A DNA stretch of 64,000 bases, from NCBI GenBank assembly GCA_030265395.1, contig JARFYF010000059.1, positions 22,521,021 through 22,585,020 of the forward strand, written 5' to 3'. How positions within the stretch are numbered: the first letter of the stretch is position 1; each line of letters starts with the position of its first letter. This document shows, in pieces, positions 1 to 62,181 of this stretch. A program made the translations under genes and the position numbers. The notes beneath the pieces are model-generated. The model was not told the origin of the DNA and ran no database searches. It saw only the letters and a list, made by a program, of their open reading frames with translations. Source of the stretch: Rhina ancylostomus. Its lineage: Eukaryota.

Positions 1-141
1 AATCTTTATTCTGCATTCTGTTATTGTTTTACCTTGTACTACCTCAATGCACTGTGTCATGAATTGATCTGCATGAACAGTATGCAAGACAAGATTTTCA
101 CTGTACCTTGGTACATGTGACCATAATAACCAATTACAATT
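1..141 (+). mobile_element. 3' UTR/tail of Rex1/Babar-type LINE (truncated by window edge)
   Basis: Nearly colinear with 55770-55907 and 46880-46955 (TTTATTCTGCATTC...CTTGTACTACCTCAATG...TTTTCACTGTACC..GGTACATGTGAC...AATAA), which follow Rex-type ORF2 ends. Confidence 0.85.
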
Positions 142-15992: not shown

Positions 15993-17485
15993 GCCCAGCG
16001 AACTGGATCCTGATCAGTTGGTCTTAACCTTAGTGTAAATACAGCGCATAAGCCTAGCCCTTGAAAGGAGGCAAAGGAGAAAGGTTTGGAGGTTTGTTTT
16101 CTCAGTCTGGTATTATCCTGAGCTGTGAGCAGATTTAGCAGAGGATTGGGGTGCAGTAGTTCTTTATGGAGCCCAGCTGCATTTTGCACTGAACGGCTAA
16201 ACTTGTTGCCTACCACATGCCATCGAGTCTGTACCTTTTGAAATTAAGGAAGCAAGGCTGTGGGTCATCCAAGGCGCAGTGACAGGGCAGAGAGACTCAT
16301 TCTTTAAACAAGGACTAGGACATTAAGAGTGGAGGTGAGAACTTGGTTAGTTTCAGAACAGTAGTTATAAAATGTTGTGGTAAATGCAGGGAGGGGAATG
16401 TGGATGGACAGTTAGAATTTTGGAAGTGCGGTTTCAAATGAATTGCAAACATTTTTAACCTCTACCAATAATTTCAGATTTTTGCCTGCTGGTGGTCCCT
16501 AGGGAGGATCATTGACCACAAGATTCTTTTGTCATTTTGCAAGAAGTAACACATCAACATCGTCAGAAGAATAAATGGATGTAAAAAGTGCAGATAAAGA
16601 GAGACATTTTGCCTTGTAAGCCTTTTACCCCATTCAGTCCTCAATAGTGAATGATGCACAAAGCTGCTTAAGATCGGGTCAAAAGAAATCTAGACTAATA
16701 GGATACAAAACCTTTCTCTTCTACTTGTACCACCTTATTTCAAAACAATTTGGGAGTTTCCACTTAATTTTATTGGCCTGTGGTCAAAGCATAAAGGATT
16801 CCAGACCTCGTAAGTCAGAAGATTGGGTATTCATGTTTGATCCTAACATGCATTGGCAAATGCTGAAAAAGTATATTAAATTCTCTGATTGACATTTTTC
16901 ACTTTGAATATAAAAATCACCCAGAATTTCAGATTCCTCCTCTGCACTGGAACCTGCTTCCTAAATCCCTTTGGATATATGTCGTCTGCCTTAAAAAATC
17001 TTCAAAACACTTTGATCTTATTTTTGGTTGCATCCCCAGTTCTTCTAAATCCTCTGAGGTGACAATTAGCCTTCAGCTTAGGACAATTCAGTCAGTTATT
17101 AATGTGTGTGTATATTATATTATTATTGAAGCAATCACTAGTAAAAGTATTGGAGATGGGCAATAGTTATTATGAAGCAGTAGTTCATCACCACTAGATT
17201 GATGATGACATGACATGATCACTCATTAACAGACATTAATCAAACTGCCTGCTATGAGTAAATGCAACATATGGTGTACAGGCCTGGAAGCTCCCACATC
17301 TGATATCCAGTTGGATCCTCACAGCACAGAAGGCATCTGATTTACCTCCACACCCCAGACAAGTGAGGCAGTTGACCGAATGCTTGACTGCTCTGTAGTG
17401 ATGTCTGTTGGGTACTGAATCTTTGTTGATGCTCAGGAGGCCGTGATGGTTCCACGGTCAAGTAGCCCGGTAACACATTGCCATG

Positions 17486-17654
17486 GAGACACAAGAGACT
17501 GCAGATGTTGGAATCTGGGGCAACAACCAATCTGCTGGAAGATCTCAGCAGGTCGAGCAGCATCTGTGGAAGGAAGGATGCAGGGTTTCGACCTGAAACG
17601 TCAACGATTCCTTTCCTCCCACAGGTGCTGCTTGACCAGCAGATTGTTTGTTGC
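17486..17654. mobile_element. Palindromic Penelope-derived mini-element with partial hammerhead core and 12-bp TSD
   Basis: Inverted arms CAACAACCAATCTGCTGG..GGTCGAGCAGCATCTGTGG / CCACAGGTGCTGCTTGACC..AGCAGATTGTTTGTTG around GATGCAGGGTTTCGACCTGAAACGTC; AACACATTGCCA at 17472-17483 and 17655-17666. Confidence 0.85.
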
Positions 17655-18754
17655 AACACATTGCCAAGACTTGGAGGTGAAGAACATCTGTGTGGAGACA
17701 AGAGGCAATGTGCCAGCTCTCGTCTCCCTCAGCATCTTGAGGAAAGGTGGGGAGAAACCGAGAACAAAAGGGCAATTTAACTGTTCAGCGTAACTGAATT
17801 AAGAAACAAAATTCCTTGTTCCAACCCGATGGTTTTGAGGTAGTTATTGGTGAGCCAACTCTCCCCTCCTTTGAGAAATTTCTGCATTCCCCAAATTCAC
17901 AGCAGTCAAACCTTCAGAAAGCCACAATTCCCTCCCCTATGTTAACAGCCATTCTAACATTCCAAATCCAGAATTTTCTTTCCCAACAACATTGTGTCTC
18001 TCCTTCCACTTTTGCATAAATACATAAATAAAAATGTTTTTTCAATAGCCATCACAGAGTGGCAATTCACAACTATTTATATTCAAGACTGAGTGCTGGC
18101 TTATTAATAATTAATAAGAAATCAAAGCATTTGGGGGCCACAACAACATATTATTTATTTACTTTGCTTTGTTTTTCTGCAGATCATTGACACGAAAGAG
18201 GTGCTCAGAAAGTTAAAAGATTTGGACTCTGCTGGAAACAAAACCCTGTAAAGAAGTCTTCTGAGAACGGCTCCGGTAGGTGAGTGCCCAGAAGGGTGAA
18301 GAGGACTCTAGCTTAGTGTGAGTAGGCAGCCTACCACCAACACAGCTTAACTGGAGGCAAAGATTCCTAGACAGAAGCACGTCAGTTTACATTTAATTTA
18401 TTGTAGGATATTCCTAACTACCTCCAGACCCAGACAGATAATGGTTTAACAGGCATTCTGGTTTGACTTAAGTCCTTGGTAGTATATCTATGGATCAGAT
18501 TTCATAGTCAATGAGTAAAATGCTTAAGCTCATTCCTGCCCAGTAAGAGGACACTATATCACCAGAAGCATTTCCAGATGTTGAGGGCACTGTGGAAACA
18601 CAGGCAGGATATTGTTGCAGTAGCACATTGCCATCTGCTGTTGGACTGGGACCTTGAAAACAGAGTTCTGGATGTAGAGATGATACAGATGTTATTGCTA
18701 AAGTGCAGGGCTCCATCAAAACTGAAAATACTTCTCCAGTTATTGGTCTGCATT

Positions 18755-23420: not shown

Positions 23421-24103
23421 GGAAAATTGACACTTTTTTTTAACCTAAATAAAATTTTCCCTCCCTTACAACATAAAACTGGAGAAAGGTAAAGCGTTAT
23501 TCTTGTTAATACAAAGCATAAGGAGCAAGCTGGTGAAAAGGATTTTGTTGCTGGAGTTTAGCATATCCTCTGCTCAAATAAAACAATTCATCTTTCAAAG
23601 CTAGTCACTGGGTAGTTATTATCAGGGGGATTTGCCGTTTCCCTCACTGGAAAACTTCACCCTGACTGCTGCATTGTTCCTAGTTGCACCTGTGGGTGAT
23701 GAGCGCCACCTGCTGGTGTAGCCCCAGGCTGCACCATTCCTACTGCCAACTGAGCTGAAAGTGGCCAAGGTGACCCAGCCAGTACTCTGTGAAAGCCTAA
23801 ATGTGTGTTAACCCAACAAAGACAGCCAACCACATGTTTTAACGGGGTATTAACATTCTGAATGGGGAGAGTGGCAGAAAGCAAAGGTTGTAATGTATTT
23901 TTATTTCCACAATTTGGGACCACAAAAGGAATTGTAGACCAGAAGATACCAAAGACAATGCTAGTGCAGCAATGCTCAGTGCCTTGCTGACATCCTTCAA
24001 GTCAGTCACTGTTATCAATGGACAGCACCCTTCACTAAAATAGAAAACAACAGAACGACATGCAAGGAGATTAGAGCAAAGAAAGAGACTATACTGCCCA
24101 GGG

Positions 24104-24287
24104 GAGACACAAGAGAACGCAGATGCTGGGATCTGCAACAACAAACTATCTGAGGGAGGAAAGGAATTGCTGACATTTCAGGCTGAAACCCTGCATCAGG
24201 ATGTCGACACTTCCTCCCCTCGCCCCCCCCCCCCCCACAGATGCTGCTCGACCCGCTGAATTCCTCCAGCACATTGTTTGTTGCTCC
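24104..24287. mobile_element. Palindromic Penelope-derived mini-element with hammerhead core (- strand) and ~14-bp TSD
   Basis: GAGACACAAGAGA..GCAGATGCTGG arm; minus-strand CCTGATGCAGGGTTTCAGCCTGAAATGTC; inverted arm CCACAGATGCTGCTCGACCCGCTGA..TTGTTTGTTGCTCC; GACTATACTGCCCA (24087-24100) vs GACTATTCTGTCCA (24289-24302). Confidence 0.85.
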
Positions 24288-26784
24288 TGACTATTCTGTC
24301 CATCCTGTTTGTGCAGTTTGCTCTTTGGAAGTTCTTTCCCCGTCACCCTGCAAACCTTTATCAAGTATAAACATCCAGCAAAGTGCTGAGTAACAGAAGG
24401 AGAGTTCTAACTGACAGAGGTGCAGGGCACCACATGTTATATATGAGAGGTTGAATCAATGACTTTATACTGAGGCTGAGTGGTTACGGAGAAGGGAGGA
24501 CAGGAGGGGGTTTNNNNNNNNNNNNNNNNNNNNNNNNNNNNNNNNNNNNNNNNNNNNNNNNNNNNNNNNNNNNNNNNNNNNNNNNNNNNNNNNCAGTTTC
24601 TATTCCCTGTAGACATTTCAGAAACATATTCTGTTACAGTTATGTGGCTACAGTTAGATCTAATAAAGAGATGAATGTTTTTAAGAGAGCTTAGGGCTGC
24701 CTGGATATAGCAATCAGAGAAATGCTTCAATAGATAAATTGTAAAAAAGGAAGAAAAGAAAAGCCAGCAACTTAATTTTACTATTTACCCTTGAGTAATG
24801 TTTCAGCCCTCTGCAGTCTGAGTTCCTTGGTAGCTTGGTTTTAGGTCTGGATGTTGCACTACACAGGGCGATCCCAAGCACTGACATTCTCAACCATAGG
24901 GAAGATGGAGCTCCCTGGATGAATTCCCTCTCTCTGCTGAGTTAGCTCATTCCACTCACTGCAGCAATTACTCATAGTACATTCAGCAGCAGTTTCACTC
25001 AGCTGTCGAGCTTGTATGGCTGGCTAATCATAAAATTACACCCTGTTGTGAGCACAGAATAGGCCATTTGGCCCAACACATTGACGCTGGTGTTAATTTT
25101 CCACAGGACCCTTGCACCCTATTTCATCTCACCCCATTACTACACACTCTGTTCCTTTTCCCCTCATGTATCTCAATCACTTCAATCAGTTCATGTGGGA
25201 ATTTGGACTCCCCTGCTAAAGGAAACCTAACCAATAGAACACCTTCACCTTTAAAGACATTCTGCAGAGAAAAGGGCCCCAAACTATTTAGGAGGAGAAT
25301 GTCAGATGATGATAGAATTGAATAGTTCTGATCAAATCTTAGCTTTTACTGGGAGGCACAGGTGTTTAGAAAGGCTAAACATGCAAGATGGAAATCACCC
25401 CCTCAACACACCCTGCACTGTTTCCTCCACAGGAGCCTCAGGAGACTGCATCCCTAAGCAACAGTTTTTAGCATATAGGTGCCCCTGAGCAAGGGCTATG
25501 GCTGCTGATGCCAACACACAGGGGAAGGGGGTGAGGAATTCAGGCAGTGAATGCCTATGTTTCCAATGTACCCCTCAGCAGGAGATGCTCAGGAGGAACA
25601 TTTACACTGGCCTGCTATAAATGAAAAGATAAAAAGACTCAATTAGATCTGAGTGCGTGCCCTTCCATTTTCATTTGTATTTGAAACTCCCAGTAGCATT
25701 AAAGTGCACTAATCTTTCGAAGGTTAATTTATTCATAGATGTCTTGACAGAGATGTATGACTGAACTGCCAACCACAGGGAGAGCAGAGCAGTGCAGAGC
25801 TGTACCACAGGAGCCAGGCTTCTCATAAACCTATCCTCGGGATTCTGTCAGAGTTTGCCAGTGGGATGTGGGCAATCTTTGCCCTCAGCTCAGCTCCTGT
25901 AGGTGTATTCAAGATCCCTGAGGATACGAACATTGTTGGAAGTGATGCTGGACGTGGGCTGGATCACACTGGGCACATTTCCCATTATACCATCGTATCA
26001 AAATCACTGGGACTGAGCATCAGGCCGAGTGAATGACAGGTTCCTTTTTCAAAAATTCCTTCTTTACCTTGTGTTCAATTTCATTGCAACACCTTTAACA
26101 TACCTTGACTTTGAGCAAAATTGTGAAAGAAATGAAAACAGGACAGCCAGTTGTCAGAGTTAATGCAAATAAAAACGGAGATGTAAATTAGACAGCGAAT
26201 CACAACTTGCCTGGTTTACACCTTTACCTTGGTGAAATATCATTCTCCTCACCCTAAAATAAGAGGCCATGGGAACAATGGTGGGGATGAAGAGGGGGCT
26301 TTTGGGACGAGAAGCATTTTACATTTAACAATGAAGGCTGTTAAAAGAAAATGGATTAAACTGCCAAGGCAGGCAGATTGAAGAGGAAGTTGAATATATG
26401 TGGTATTCTTCAAACCAGACAAACAAGCCATATTCCGGTGGCCATTTGCAGTCCTGTGTCATCTCTGCTGTTTCTGCTGGTGCTCTCTTGACTGCCTCAT
26501 GGTTTATAGGTACAACTGCTAAACACAGACTTAAACGTGTACTCAAGGGTAGCCTAATGAGTATGTTGTGTGGTTCTTTTGGAGTTAAAGAGCAACAAAG
26601 ATGAAGACCAGGGAGGAAACGTGCCATCCGTAACTGAGGCTGGGTCCTGAGTGAGGGAGCAAGGGGACTGATGGTCATTGGTTTGATCAGGTGAGTGGCC
26701 ACAGTGAGAGAATGCTGGGGATCTGGGAAAAAGGGAGGGGTTTGGCGATCAGTTAAATGGCCAGGGCTGGAGAGTGGAGATTGA

Positions 26785-39446: not shown

Positions 39447-39658
39447 AATCAAAAAACTGCAGACACTGGAAATCTGAAATGAAAACAGAAAATGCTAGGA
39501 AGGCTTAGCAGGTCAGGCAGCATCTGTGGAGAGAGAGAGATATTGTTTCAGGGCAAAGACAGGGAAAGAGAGAAAGCAAGTTAGTTTTGGGTTGCAGTGA
39601 AGGTGGGGAAAGGTTGGAAAGAACAAAGGGAAAATCTGTGATAGGGTGTAGCCAGCTG
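39447..39658 (-). mobile_element. Penelope-like element 3' end (older subfamily)
   Basis: AAACTGCAGACACTGGAAATCTGAAATGAAAACAGAAAATGCT..AGCAGGTCAGGCAGCATCTGTGGAGAGAG..GTTTCAGG, then purine-rich 3'-UTR complement. Confidence 0.8.
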
Positions 39659-51800: not shown

Positions 51801-52726
51801 GAAGTCAACAAGACAACATGGGAGCTGAATCACATGGACCTGAATCCTTTTGATGTGGAAACATATCATCGCTGGTTCAAGATCCTGAAACTCACCTGTC
51901 ACATGTCTGTAGTGACTCAAGAAGACAACTTGCCACCAACTCCTCCTGGACAATTAGGTTTGGGTAATTATTTCTGGCCTTTCCAATGAAAGTCATATGG
52001 CATAAATATTTACTAAAAGGATTGAATAAGCAGATTTGAAATCCATCTCAATTGGTCTGATGTCAACCCAATTGCTCTTTATCATTTCCTCAGTTTATTA
52101 CTACCCCTCTGTCTTTCTTCTATTATCCCTTACTCATCATATCTCAGTTAATCCTCTCTCCTATGTTCCTTTCTCATGTTTGGTTGTTGTCATTAGAGAA
52201 AAAAATCGGGCATCCTTTAAAAATGTCTGTTGATTCGCAATCACCCACGTTGCCCCAATTCCACAGCCCACTGTAAATATGCAAAGGAGGTGAAGCTGCA
52301 GAATTGTTTTTACTTATTGCAACCTTGTCATGTTATCATATTACTGGTAAAGGAAACCACAACAGCAGTTCATGTGATTAAAGGGCAGAACCACCTAACT
52401 TCCCCGGAGGAGTAAGTACAGGAATCACCAAACCTGAAAAAGAGAAACAACCGTTGTTATTTGTGACTGAATCTTAAAGGTCACCTGCAGTGCTGGCTGT
52501 GCACTGAGCACACAACCATATGTGGCATTAATAATGTTCATTTAATCTTCTTGTGAAGTTTCATGCAACTCTATCTTATCGGTCCACTTACTACCATCCT
52601 TTCCTGCAACCCCAGCCAATATTAATTGATGCCGACCTGATCAACTGGTTCAAAAAGGAAGAGAAAAGATATCCATTTGGAGGCAGACTCGGGGAGGGGC
52701 ACAATTCAATGCCTACGTGGCAATTG

Positions 52727-52856
52727 GAGATACAAGAAACTGCAGATGCTGGAATCTGGAGCAGCAAACAATCTGCTGGAGGAATTCATCGAGTCGAGCA
52801 GCATCTGTGGTAGGAAAGGAATTGTCAACGTTTTAGGTCAAAACCCTGCATCAACC
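52727..52856 (-). mobile_element. Penelope-like end fragment with degenerate hammerhead
   Basis: GAGATACAAGAAACTGCAGATGCTGGAATCTGGAGCAGCAAACAATCTGCTGGAGGAA..; reverse core TTGATGCAGGGTTTTGACCTAAAACGTTGAC. Confidence 0.85.
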
Positions 52857-53995: not shown

Positions 53996-54127
53996 GTCCA
54001 GATAAATGGTCTCAACCTGAAACGTCAACTGTCCATTTCCCTCCATAGATGTTGCCTGACCCACTGAGTTCCTCCAGCATGTCATGTGTTGCTCCAGATT
54101 CCAGCATCTGCAGTCTCTTGTGTCTCT
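53996..54127 (+). mobile_element. Penelope-like end fragment with degenerate hammerhead
   Basis: GTC-CAGATAA-ATGGTCTCAACCT-GAAACGTC-AACTGTCCATTTCCCTCCATAGATG..GCTCCAGATTCCAGCATCTGCAGTCTCTTGTGTCTC. Confidence 0.85.
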
Positions 54128-55137
54128 GGTCTACCACCTGATTTGGGGTGTGGGATTTGCTAGCCCAATAAGGGAGATGGCCACAACACCAAGGAACAGG
54201 ACAGAAAGACCTTTCCTGATATTTTTCAAGAATGAGCACCATATCTATGCCAGAAAGGGGACCTCAAAATCTTTCCCTGTCTGCTGTCCCATTTGCTAAT
54301 CAGCTACTTTCATCAAAAAAAGTTTCAGAACCATTTTAATCCTTTCTCAATATGTTTTCTGCCAAGCTGACTGTAATTCATAACTACGGAAGTAAATTAA
54401 GACAAAATGGTTTCCTTTCAATTAAGTGTGCAGTAGCCTCAAGTAACCCGCTGTAATTCTATTTAATGAAAAAATTAAATTATTCTCTCCACTTCATTGC
54501 CTTTTGTGACACACACAGAGCATGTGTTCATTAAATGGAGTGGATTTATTTAATCTCCCCAAAATAAGCCCTATTTTGTATGATAAAAGTGAAGGCCTGG
54601 TAATTAATTGAATGTACAGTTGATTACTCCTGGTGGATAATCAAGTGCCTTCTTAAAAGTATCGATCCAACAAGTTGGCAGGCAGATTTATGAAACAAAT
54701 CAATAGCATTAAAATTCTTGTCAGTATAACAAATCTTTCATAGGGTAATTACATATTGGGAGAAAACACTGTGTAAATGTGTGGATGAGTAAATATATGT
54801 CTCAGTCATAGCTTTCAGTCTACTTCTCAACCAGTCAGGGAATAACTATTGTTGAAAATGTTAGTCCACTATTTGGCTGTATTAGTGGACAGCCTTTGAA
54901 TCATTTGTCCATGTAAGTATTCCATCCAAACATCAAGTGAAGAGTTTAGCTTCAGCCTGAAGAACCAGGCCAGGATGCACCAAAGATGCTTTTATGTGGA
55001 TTTACAGTCTTCCAGTAAATTTGAATAGACTTTCCCCATCTCATTCAAATGGGAAATACAGACTTTAAATTTCAAGGTTTGTAGTTTTTTTATATGGAGA
55101 TACTAAATCAGAGATTGTGCGATGTCTAGGTTGAAAC

Positions 55138-55919: not shown

Positions 55920-56015
55920 TTGATGAAGGGTCTTGACCTGAAACGTCAACTGTCTATTTCCCTCCATAGATGCTCCCTGACCCACCGAGTTCATCCAGCA
56001 GTTCATTTTTTGCTC
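55920..56015 (+). mobile_element. Penelope-like end fragment with hammerhead core, abutting the Rex tail
   Basis: TTGATGA-AGGGTCTTGACCT-GAAACGTC-AACTGTC..CCATAGATGCT.CCTGACCC..GAGTTC.TCCAGCA. Confidence 0.85.
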
Positions 56016-57704: not shown

Positions 57705-57833
57705 GATGGAATTGGGAGCAACAAACAAGATGCTGGAGGAACTCAGCAGGTCAGGCAGCATCCGTGGAGGGAAATGGACAGTCGGCGTTTCGGGTCAAGA
57801 CCCTTCATCTGGACTGAAAGATAGAAAAGAGAT
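57705..57833 (-). mobile_element. Penelope-like end fragment with hammerhead fold (57779-57816)
   Basis: Reverse: CAGTC-CAGATGA-AGGGTCTTGACCC-GAAACGCC-GACTG; stems I and II pair. Confidence 0.85.
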
Positions 57834-59514: not shown

Positions 59515-59694
59515 GCCACCTTGTCTATTGTGTTCGGTGTTCACAATGTGGCCTCCTCTACACTGGAGAAATCAAATACAGATTGCAGGGCACTGGTGCT
59601 CTGTCCACAAGGATGATCCTGAATTTCCAAGGTGATTCTGAATTTCCTGTTGTATGCCACTTTAAGTTGCAATCCCACTCCTATTCTGACCTAT
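59515..59694 (+). mobile_element. Penelope-like GIY-YIG endonuclease fragment
   Basis: HLVYCVRCSQCGLLYTGEIKYRL..EFPVVCHF..SHSYSDL: VY..CxxC..Y(I)GET GIY-YIG signature; runs into N gap. Confidence 0.88.
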
Positions 59695-60430: not shown

Positions 60431-60765
60431 AAATTCAGTTCCAAAATGGGAATGATGAGGAAGACACAATGGAGAGCTTCAAAGCCAAAGGAAGACTCGA
60501 ACAAGAAAACAAGCACTACCAGTTGGGAAAAAGGAGCAGAGCAGCAGATTGGTGAGACTGGGCCAAAACTAATATAGACTGTGCAAGTGAAGGCAGTGTT
60601 AGAAACTTTCATGGGGTCGAGACCAGAAGAAATTTACATCCAGAAGCCTTGGTGCAAAAAAAATCTGTTTACAGAGACTTTTGACAAGACCATGACTTGC
60701 ATTAGTGGAAAACAAACAAAATTACAGAGCTCCAGTTTGAAACCCATAATCTCTCTACTCTCTCT

Positions 60766-60806
60766 CCAGTTCTGAGGAAGGGTCACTGACCTGAAACATT
60801 GACTGG
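60766..60806 (+). ncRNA. Minimal type-I hammerhead ribozyme motif in Penelope end (element to ~60866)
   Basis: Stem I CCAGUU/GACUGG; core CUGAGGA; extra A; stem II GGGUC-ACU-GACCU; GAAA; C-AUU. Confidence 0.7.
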
Positions 60807-61384
60807 TTTCTCTTTCCACAGATGCTGCCTGACTGGCTGAGTTCCTCCAGCATTTGTGTTTTTGTTAAGGGCAAATAGAAATGGGCAGCAAGTCCACATC
60901 CTTTCCAGCAGCTCCACATCCCTGGAAATGGATAACGGAATGGGGGTGATTCAAACAGATTAATTCAATCTCCATCTCCTGTGGTCAAATGTCTGAAGTT
61001 TCAAAGAATTATAGGTTCTTACAGACAAGGGTTTACAGATTTTACCCATGTGTATTATTTGTTCCATTACAAATTGTGCAGCTCCCGAAATGAATTGGGA
61101 ATTATTTGATTCTCCAAATACTTAATTCAGTTGTGGTCATCATTACAGGATGGTGCAAAGCAACGTCACTTTGTAGGTAAAACCCACTTGTTTTCATTTT
61201 AGATCAGCCTGTCATCATAATAGAGTCATTCCACAAAGGTAAGTTGTTGGGTTGCTGTTGGGCAGTTTCCTAATAGGCATCCGAGAGCACCGTGTTGATG
61301 CAGTATTTCAGGTATTTGGTTAGATCTGAATCATTAGTCCAGAGCAACATAACCACAAGACTAACAAGACCTTATCAGTGGTAT

Positions 61385-61730: not shown

Positions 61731-61861
61731 TGTTGCTCCACTGATGCCCTATGATAAAAGCTCTGATCCCACAAGCGACTCTTCAAAACTGTGACTACGT
61801 CACCCCACATTCCTCTAGCCTCCCAGTAGAGAGCTATGATAATGGGAAACAATGAGAGAGC

Positions 61862-62070
61862 AGTTTACCTGAAGGTGGAGAATTCAATGTTCATTCCACA
61901 AGCTAGCTAAGTGTCTATTTGGAAGATAAAACGATGTTTGAGTTTACATTGGGCCTCACTATGGCAGTGGAGGAGGCTGCAGGCAGACAGTCTGAATAGG
62001 TCAGAAGAGGAGTCGGATTGAGAATTAAAGTGGCATACAACAGGAAACTCAGGAACACCCTGTGGACACC
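61862..62070 (-). mobile_element. Penelope-like GIY-YIG C-terminal fragment
   Basis: Reverse: PEFPVVCHFNSQSDSSSDL..SLLHCHSEAQCKLK..IF..GMNIEFSTFR. Confidence 0.85.
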
Positions 62071-62144: not shown

Positions 62145-62181
62145 AGTTCTGATGACAGGTTACTGACCTGAAACTTTAACT
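62145..62181 (+). ncRNA. Minimal type-I hammerhead motif in inverted Penelope pLTR (element to ~62240)
   Basis: Stem I AGUU/AACU; core CUGAUGA; extra C; stem II AGGUU-ACU-GACCU; GAAA; C-UUU. Confidence 0.65.

Follow-up and report, generated by a model that had tools for sequence, protein, structure and literature searches.

Insertions of endonuclease-bearing (EN+) Penelope-like elements (PLEs) have been described as units in which an inverted, 5′-truncated pLTR and a one-sided tail of 30-40 bp are found together with a target-site duplication (TSD) (PMC8557442 Fig. 2 legend; PMC3846280). In the available text of these papers, the inverted pLTRs are attributed to self-priming (PMC3846280) and the tail to endonuclease resolution (PMC8557442), and the origin of tandem and inverted pLTRs is termed unresolved (PMC8557442, PMC3846280, PMC2377424). 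Metazoan PLEs also carry minimal type I hammerhead ribozymes, and dual hammerhead motifs on opposite strands, 100-700 bp apart, have been reported in them (PMC4209133). In vitro, the Poseidon protein of Anolis carolinensis, a predicted dimer, nicks both DNA strands and extends them, and it initiates reverse transcription at two internal sites between which the tail lies (PMC11167929).

Here we analyzed an insertion that carries several of these features within a 64-kb stretch of DNA (hereafter, the window). The insert occupies positions 17484-17654 (171 bp) and lies between two perfect copies of AACACATTGCCA, which were read from the window sequence and abut both element ends precisely (Table 1). 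Only one other pair of perfect 12-mers at 150-220 bp spacing occurs in the window. Family positions are numbered relative to the G of the GATG within the hammerhead core, on a reference built from other copies. On this scale, the left arm corresponds to +32/+36 to +128 in antisense, with 7 differences from the consensus in 92 aligned nt, and the right (sense) arm has a 14-nt internal deletion and 5 differences in 78 aligned nt; the family median divergence from the reference is 12% (145 copies). The arms are unequal, as the tail arm lacks the hammerhead and the hammerhead arm lacks the tail. The insert contains no ORF. MITEs are defined by terminal inverted repeats that are symmetric and also found in a DNA transposon; the ends of the insert are asymmetric, with a one-sided tail, and are shared with a retroelement. 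Compared with shuffled sequences, the insert region forms a long predicted hairpin at -83.4 kcal/mol (z -6.5, 0/200 shuffles as good), and its minus strand folds at -78.9.

Table 1. Features of the insert and of related remnants in the window
Feature	Position	Strand	Basis
Left TSD copy, 12 bp	17472..17483	+	Sequence match (family D3, 100%)
35-nt Penelope tail, between two inferred RT start sites, left arm only	17484..17518	-	Family +94 to +128
Inverted (antisense) 5′-truncated pLTR arm with tail	17484..17578	-	Stops 3′ of hammerhead
Arm junction, 2-nt overlap GA assignable to either arm	17577..17578	.	Sequence versus family consensus
Minimal type I hammerhead remnant, predicted inactive	17577..17602	+	Sequence versus family consensus
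Sense 5′-truncated pLTR arm, hammerhead core to inner end, no tail	17577..17654	+	Family 0 to +92
Right TSD copy, 12 bp	17655..17666	+	Sequence match
Decayed GIY-YIG fragment of a related PLE, outside the insert	59517..59693	+	tblastn P0002 354-409, E 1e-4
Decayed C-terminal PLE ORF end after GIY-YIG, outside the insert	61851..62040	-	Comparison to family

The initial annotation had described a complete, ORF-less, retro-derived Penelope insertion with a perfect 12-bp TSD, and on both points we agree: one TSD surrounds both arms, and longer copies of the same family carry RT-thumb and GIY-YIG remnants (below). Its insert length of 169 bp needed correction. It had further envisaged two inverted copies of a Penelope 3′ end with a hammerhead remnant between them that would cap a long hairpin. 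The inverted copies, the motif, and the strong predicted hairpin are all present, but the copies are not equal (tail on the left only, deletion on the right), and the motif is not a spacer but the 5′ part of the right sense copy.

The layout closely follows that of Pen2a/Pen2 in Adineta vaga, which shares the head-to-head pLTRs, the tail at one end, the single TSD, the microhomology junction, and the pLTR hammerhead, with a TSD of 8-10 bp compared to 12 bp here (PMC3846280). Unlike in Adineta, the arms in the window are each <100 nt and leave no ORF, and this short form is the family majority. In its features, the family also resembles Poseidon, in which both strands are nicked and extended: it has two inferred internal RT start sites, one at each border of the tail, and a hammerhead beside the probable ORF start (PMC11167929). 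The Penelope/Poseidon clade is delimited by RT phylogeny and by lack of the Zn-finger-like linker found in Neptune/Nematis. The available text of the Poseidon study mentions neither joined inverted products nor a 5′ wall, a sharp upstream limit of the copies. Like the insert, non-LTR (animal) retrozymes are ORF-less, pLTR-related, and hammerhead-bearing; as far as the source describes them, they consist of tandem direct repeats with at least two complete hammerheads, whereas the insert is a single inverted pair with one broken motif (bioRxiv 10.64898/2026.07.22.740005). We rejected identity with a retrozyme on these grounds, as the tandem complete hammerheads are absent and the one motif of the inverted pair is missing C3 and U4. 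Identity with a MITE or another self-propagating family was likewise rejected, as no fixed structure with the same ends and junction recurs in many of the copies sampled. The window insertion is real, of a known kind, and dead.

A search of the organism's own genome (2.2 Gb) with the insert gave 3,244 candidates, 40 of which were scored. The best 30 matches, a set biased towards the query, were all tail-to-hammerhead hairpins whose junctions and flanking repeats differed. Two exact 17-mers of the hammerhead had 1,615 and 2,314 matches in the genome, compared to 0 for controls, making the locus an ordinary dead copy among thousands. By blastn, which has low sensitivity here, 66 loci of the family and its sister families were found in 864 kb, made up of the window and 800 kb drawn from 14 contigs (97 kb of the total are N); 9 of these loci have both orientations.

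Longer copies extend upstream through a pyrimidine-rich 3′ UTR, a 24-mer of which has 688 exact matches, into a decayed ORF end. In one of these copies (L337), an inverted tail arm is followed by RT-thumb motifs, the GIY-YIG region, the 3′ UTR, and the same pLTR. Its RT-side piece matches two shark proteins, P0001 (75% over 46 aa; RVT_1 E 1.6e-8) and P0002 (72%; GIY-YIG E 2.5e-4, slightly short of the Pfam cut-off); a direct Pfam scan of the decayed ORF pieces gave no match. The Atlas returned a GIY-YIG cluster at 0.90, with the family on 21% of members. Since longer copies link RT-thumb and GIY-YIG remnants to the same pLTR end, we assign the parent, from these sequence matches, as an ordinary EN+ PLE. 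The family shows the hallmarks of this class: linkage of RT and GIY-YIG (L337, L194), a pLTR hammerhead, an inverted pLTR with a tail, and a TSD around the unit. L337 (620-2450) and L194 have the textbook long form, with an inverted tail arm, a 5′-truncated ORF end, the UTR, a tailless pLTR, and a flanking repeat. Neither a full-length family copy nor a full-length RT was recovered. Of the tail-bearing copies in the 160-copy sample below and the 30 UTR-bearing copies compared, none extended beyond the tail to reach the start of the ORF.

The initial annotation had named GIY-YIG/RT fossils at 59515 and 61862 as relics of the mobilizing machinery. Over 44-114 nt, these fossils are 68-82% identical to the family GIY-YIG region (70-82% at the DNA level between family copies and the fragment at 59517..59693), and this distance is about that between copies within the family (median 72%). 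Both are GIY-YIG-end fragments without RT, and P0001 gave no alignment with the 28-aa fossil. The kinship thus stands, but the mobilizer itself cannot be named from these fragments; putative mobilization by a GIY-YIG/RT protein is supported by the sequence relationships.

The hammerhead call rests on sequence and on the minimal-hammerhead description in PMC4209133. No hammerhead model in Rfam matched in the window, and an Rfam match of the hairpin to mir-550 was discarded as weak (E 0.11, far under the cut-off). Family copies have the core, short helix II, and palindromic ACGU helix III of metazoan-PLE minimal type I hammerheads (PMC4209133). Unlike these, they carry C in place of A9, and the window copy has also lost the first two core bases, C3 and U4. 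In Poseidon, a C3G change abolishes cleavage (PMC11167929); as C3 is needed for cleavage and is lost here, we predict that the window hammerhead is inactive. The C at the A9 place was found in 18/19 copies read (L327-L356) and A in none; in sister families, the A is retained. An inactive or variant ribozyme may thus not have kept a PLE family from spreading very successfully.

At family +33 to +128 (window 17484-17565, minus strand), the hammerhead is followed by a pyrimidine tract, CAG, and an ATG whose frame stays open through the tail for 27 codons. This arrangement is probably the start of the ORF behind a splice acceptor, and intronic stumps (short copies such as the window insert) could offer cryptic splice acceptors. 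Within a separate insertion (L178, about 930-1110, contig C1 near 120934324), a 35-nt unit covering only the hammerhead (about -7 to +28) is repeated 3-4 times head to tail. This array is the nearest to a tandem retrozyme that we saw, and it looks like the result of repeated template jumps through helix I.

We then sampled 160 copies with a hammerhead from contig C1. Selection was by an internal 17-mer and was thus blind to the junction. The sample comprises 70 loci from the first 17-mer list and 90 from the second, in positional order, with one row skipped in the first list and two second-arm rows in the second; all carry the intact 17-mer, and the figures are valid for hammerhead-bearing arms. 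The 3′ ends fall at two sites, an inner one (+80..104, 70 copies) and the tail (+118..129, 70 copies), with 20 other or unresolved. An abutting inverted arm was present in 57/160 copies and not detected in the remaining 103. Both ends could be assigned in 42 pairs, and 38 of these had a tail on exactly one arm (binomial p 6e-8): the inverted arm in 23 and the sense arm in 15, with neither tailed in 2 pairs and both in 2. TSDs were found in 28/156 copies compared to 2/156 shifted controls, and 14 of the 28 measured 12-14 bp. Junctions overlapped by 1-10 nt in 24 of the 57 inverted-arm copies, and many contained filler, with gaps up to 24 nt. Non-CpG variants were shared by the two arms of one locus in 43/578 cases (7.4%) compared to 3.4 +/- 0.6% between loci (74 loci), an excess as expected for one source. 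At the window locus, the arms share 0 of 3 non-CpG variants, which is little informative.

In L1 twin priming, both strand nicks prime, which leaves an inversion inside one TSD, and the two cDNAs copy different parts of one RNA. We propose that the locus is an old, doubly truncated EN+ PLE insertion that likely arose by twin priming during insertion; unlike in L1, the two proposed cDNAs have one and the same stretch as template and begin at two neighboring start sites. The pLTR end is present twice within one TSD, head to head and with a tail on one copy only. The GIY-YIG domain would nick both strands about 12 bp apart, and each nick would prime a cDNA; the outer (tail) start site would serve one of them and an inner site 35 nt upstream the other. 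Both cDNAs would end early, close to the hammerhead, after which the truncated cDNAs would be joined by microhomology or filler and gap filling would produce the TSD. The resulting insert, which lacks an ORF and whose ribozyme is broken, does not give rise to further copies as a unit. The 38/42 pairs with one tail and the in vitro behavior of Poseidon (PMC11167929) speak for twin priming. Against it, no inverted arm was detected in 103/160 copies, 4/42 pairs break the one-tail rule, and filler is frequent at the junctions. Our literature search, which was incomplete (e.g., Repbase entries), found no published demonstration of twin priming in PLE insertion and nothing on stumps in sharks or rays or on a 5′ wall; the available part of PMC6155905 contains nothing on sharks.

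The same parent could instead have given rise to the inverted arm by fold-back self-priming of the cDNA or of an antisense template, with the endonuclease later trimming one end. This route has been put forward in PMC3846280 and PMC8557442, and the arm-shared variants and junction overlaps are consistent with it. However, neither arm in the window contains the other, so that a plain snap-back would have to be followed by trimming of each end; the tail is often found on either arm (23 and 15 of 42); and the two 3′ ends match the two RT start sites seen in vitro (PMC11167929). We consider fold-back unlikely as the origin of the inverted arm.

The initial annotation had suggested a different view, a non-autonomous, MITE- or retrozyme-like palindromic family; in this reading, a hairpin transcript would undergo hammerhead processing and return to the genome as a unit. 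Non-autonomous derivatives of PLEs are known (PMC8557442; bioRxiv 10.64898/2026.07.22.740005), short palindromic copies are very common in our sample, and a few loci (L005, L006, L011, L182) share almost the window junction. Yet the exact window junction occurs in 2/1,615 17-mer matches, the second being L182, and no junction was found more than twice among the 57 inverted-arm copies; such locus-specific breakpoints had been named beforehand as evidence against a self-propagating family. A junction that closes helix I does recur, with 24 exact matches, and as its copies show both tail polarities, we conclude that it arises afresh. Inverted-arm ends do not pile up at the hammerhead cleavage site (+26), where we found 1/57 exactly and 4/57 within 4 nt. 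The core is broken at the window locus, and there are no tandem units. With junctions varying by locus, a palindromic family is highly improbable. We give almost no credence to two independent adjacent insertions, with the 12-bp repeat derived from one of them or from chance: the superfamily is dense, but a single TSD encloses both arms exactly, 38/42 pairs follow the one-tail rule, and abutting inverted arms in 57/160 copies far exceed what one locus per about 12 kb would give.

Under the proposed twin priming, both cDNAs end early, and the sense arms in our sample have a sharp 5′ limit. Among the 154 sense arms that do not adjoin N, 96 end at 0..-9, 7 at -10..-19, and 51 further upstream, with a loss per nt of 6.2% at this wall compared to 0.3-1.2% beyond it. 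Inverted arms end anywhere from +110 to -8, with 3/57 beyond. The wall is not an alignment artefact, as simulated longer copies were miscalled as short in at most 13/300 cases. Short copies have no other upstream sequence in common, and sister families with an A9 core have similar short ends as judged by eye.

The wall coincides with TCAGTCC, in which TCAGT lies 6-8 nt before the hammerhead core. The initiator consensus is YYANWYY, and TCAGTCC fits it, making this an initiator-like motif by sequence. The pLTR of Drosophila Penelope contains an internal initiator/DPE promoter (PMC2377424), and initiator-like words occur in the pLTRs of Adineta (PMC3846280). We hypothesize that most cDNAs are short through run-off at the 5′ end of an element RNA that would start at TCAGT, a reading whose chances we put just short of even. 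Reverse transcription begins within the RNA, close to its 5′ end (PMC11167929), so that cDNAs begun at the first start sites would measure only 100-135 nt. Two observations sit less well with run-off: the wall edge at -8 is 2 nt upstream of the predicted +1 A (-6), and the ends are spread over 0..-9. No cap-derived extra G was evident at the wall, where counts are small. RT stops at the hammerhead helices or the pyrimidine tract would produce a similar pile-up.

A splice acceptor (AG at -6/-5) was rejected as the cause of the wall: it does not account for the 35/154 arms that keep AG or more upstream (-6..-9), and no common upstream exon was found in short copies. The use of templates cut by the hammerhead was also rejected, given the lack of an inverted-arm pile-up at +26 and the 24 helix-I junctions compared to 688 unbroken upstream matches (pattern lengths 20 and 24 nt, respectively).

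More tentatively, and with more doubt than confidence, we combine these elements into one scheme in which both nicks would prime, each RT start site would be used once per insertion, and most cDNAs would be run-off copies of the first 100-135 nt of an mRNA that starts at the initiator before the hammerhead. If this is true, the thousands of stumps would map the start of transcription and would account, with no need for recombination, for inverted pLTRs, one-sided tails, and solo pLTRs. The stump population follows countable rules, namely one tail per insertion, a TSD of 12-14 bp, and a sharp 5′ limit, which could be tested in the existing in vitro Poseidon system. We note as a caution that such hairpins resemble MITEs, retrozymes, and miRNA precursors but are by-products of insertion.

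The flanking sequence in related organisms is about 2.5% (B) or 7% (C, D) divergent from the window. Contigs of B, C, and D cross over from the left flank and cover 26-32 nt of the element, showing that the site is occupied, and in C and D contigs also run from the right arm out into the right flank. Occupancy in all three places the insertion before their split. An empty site with a single copy of the 12-mer, for which the initial annotation had proposed a search in related rays, was not present among the matches listed from 8 of 14 runs, in which coverage of organisms E and F was low.

Further remnants lie elsewhere in the window. Positions 24101-24292 hold a second palindromic stump of the same family, in which the left arm has both tail and hammerhead and a C-run is expanded, and 52724-52856 hold a single-arm stump with a tail that ends just upstream of the hammerhead core. 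Sister-PLE-family remnants, several with an A9 core, are found at 725-825, 39450-39546, 53996-54133, 55920-56015, 57707-57820, 60750-60852, and 62149-62177. To the right of the insert's TSD, a tail-end-like stretch (TGGAGACAAGAG) and then an inverted partial copy of the TSD are present (17658-17666 and 17686-17713), which may be due to chance or represent a tiny second stub.
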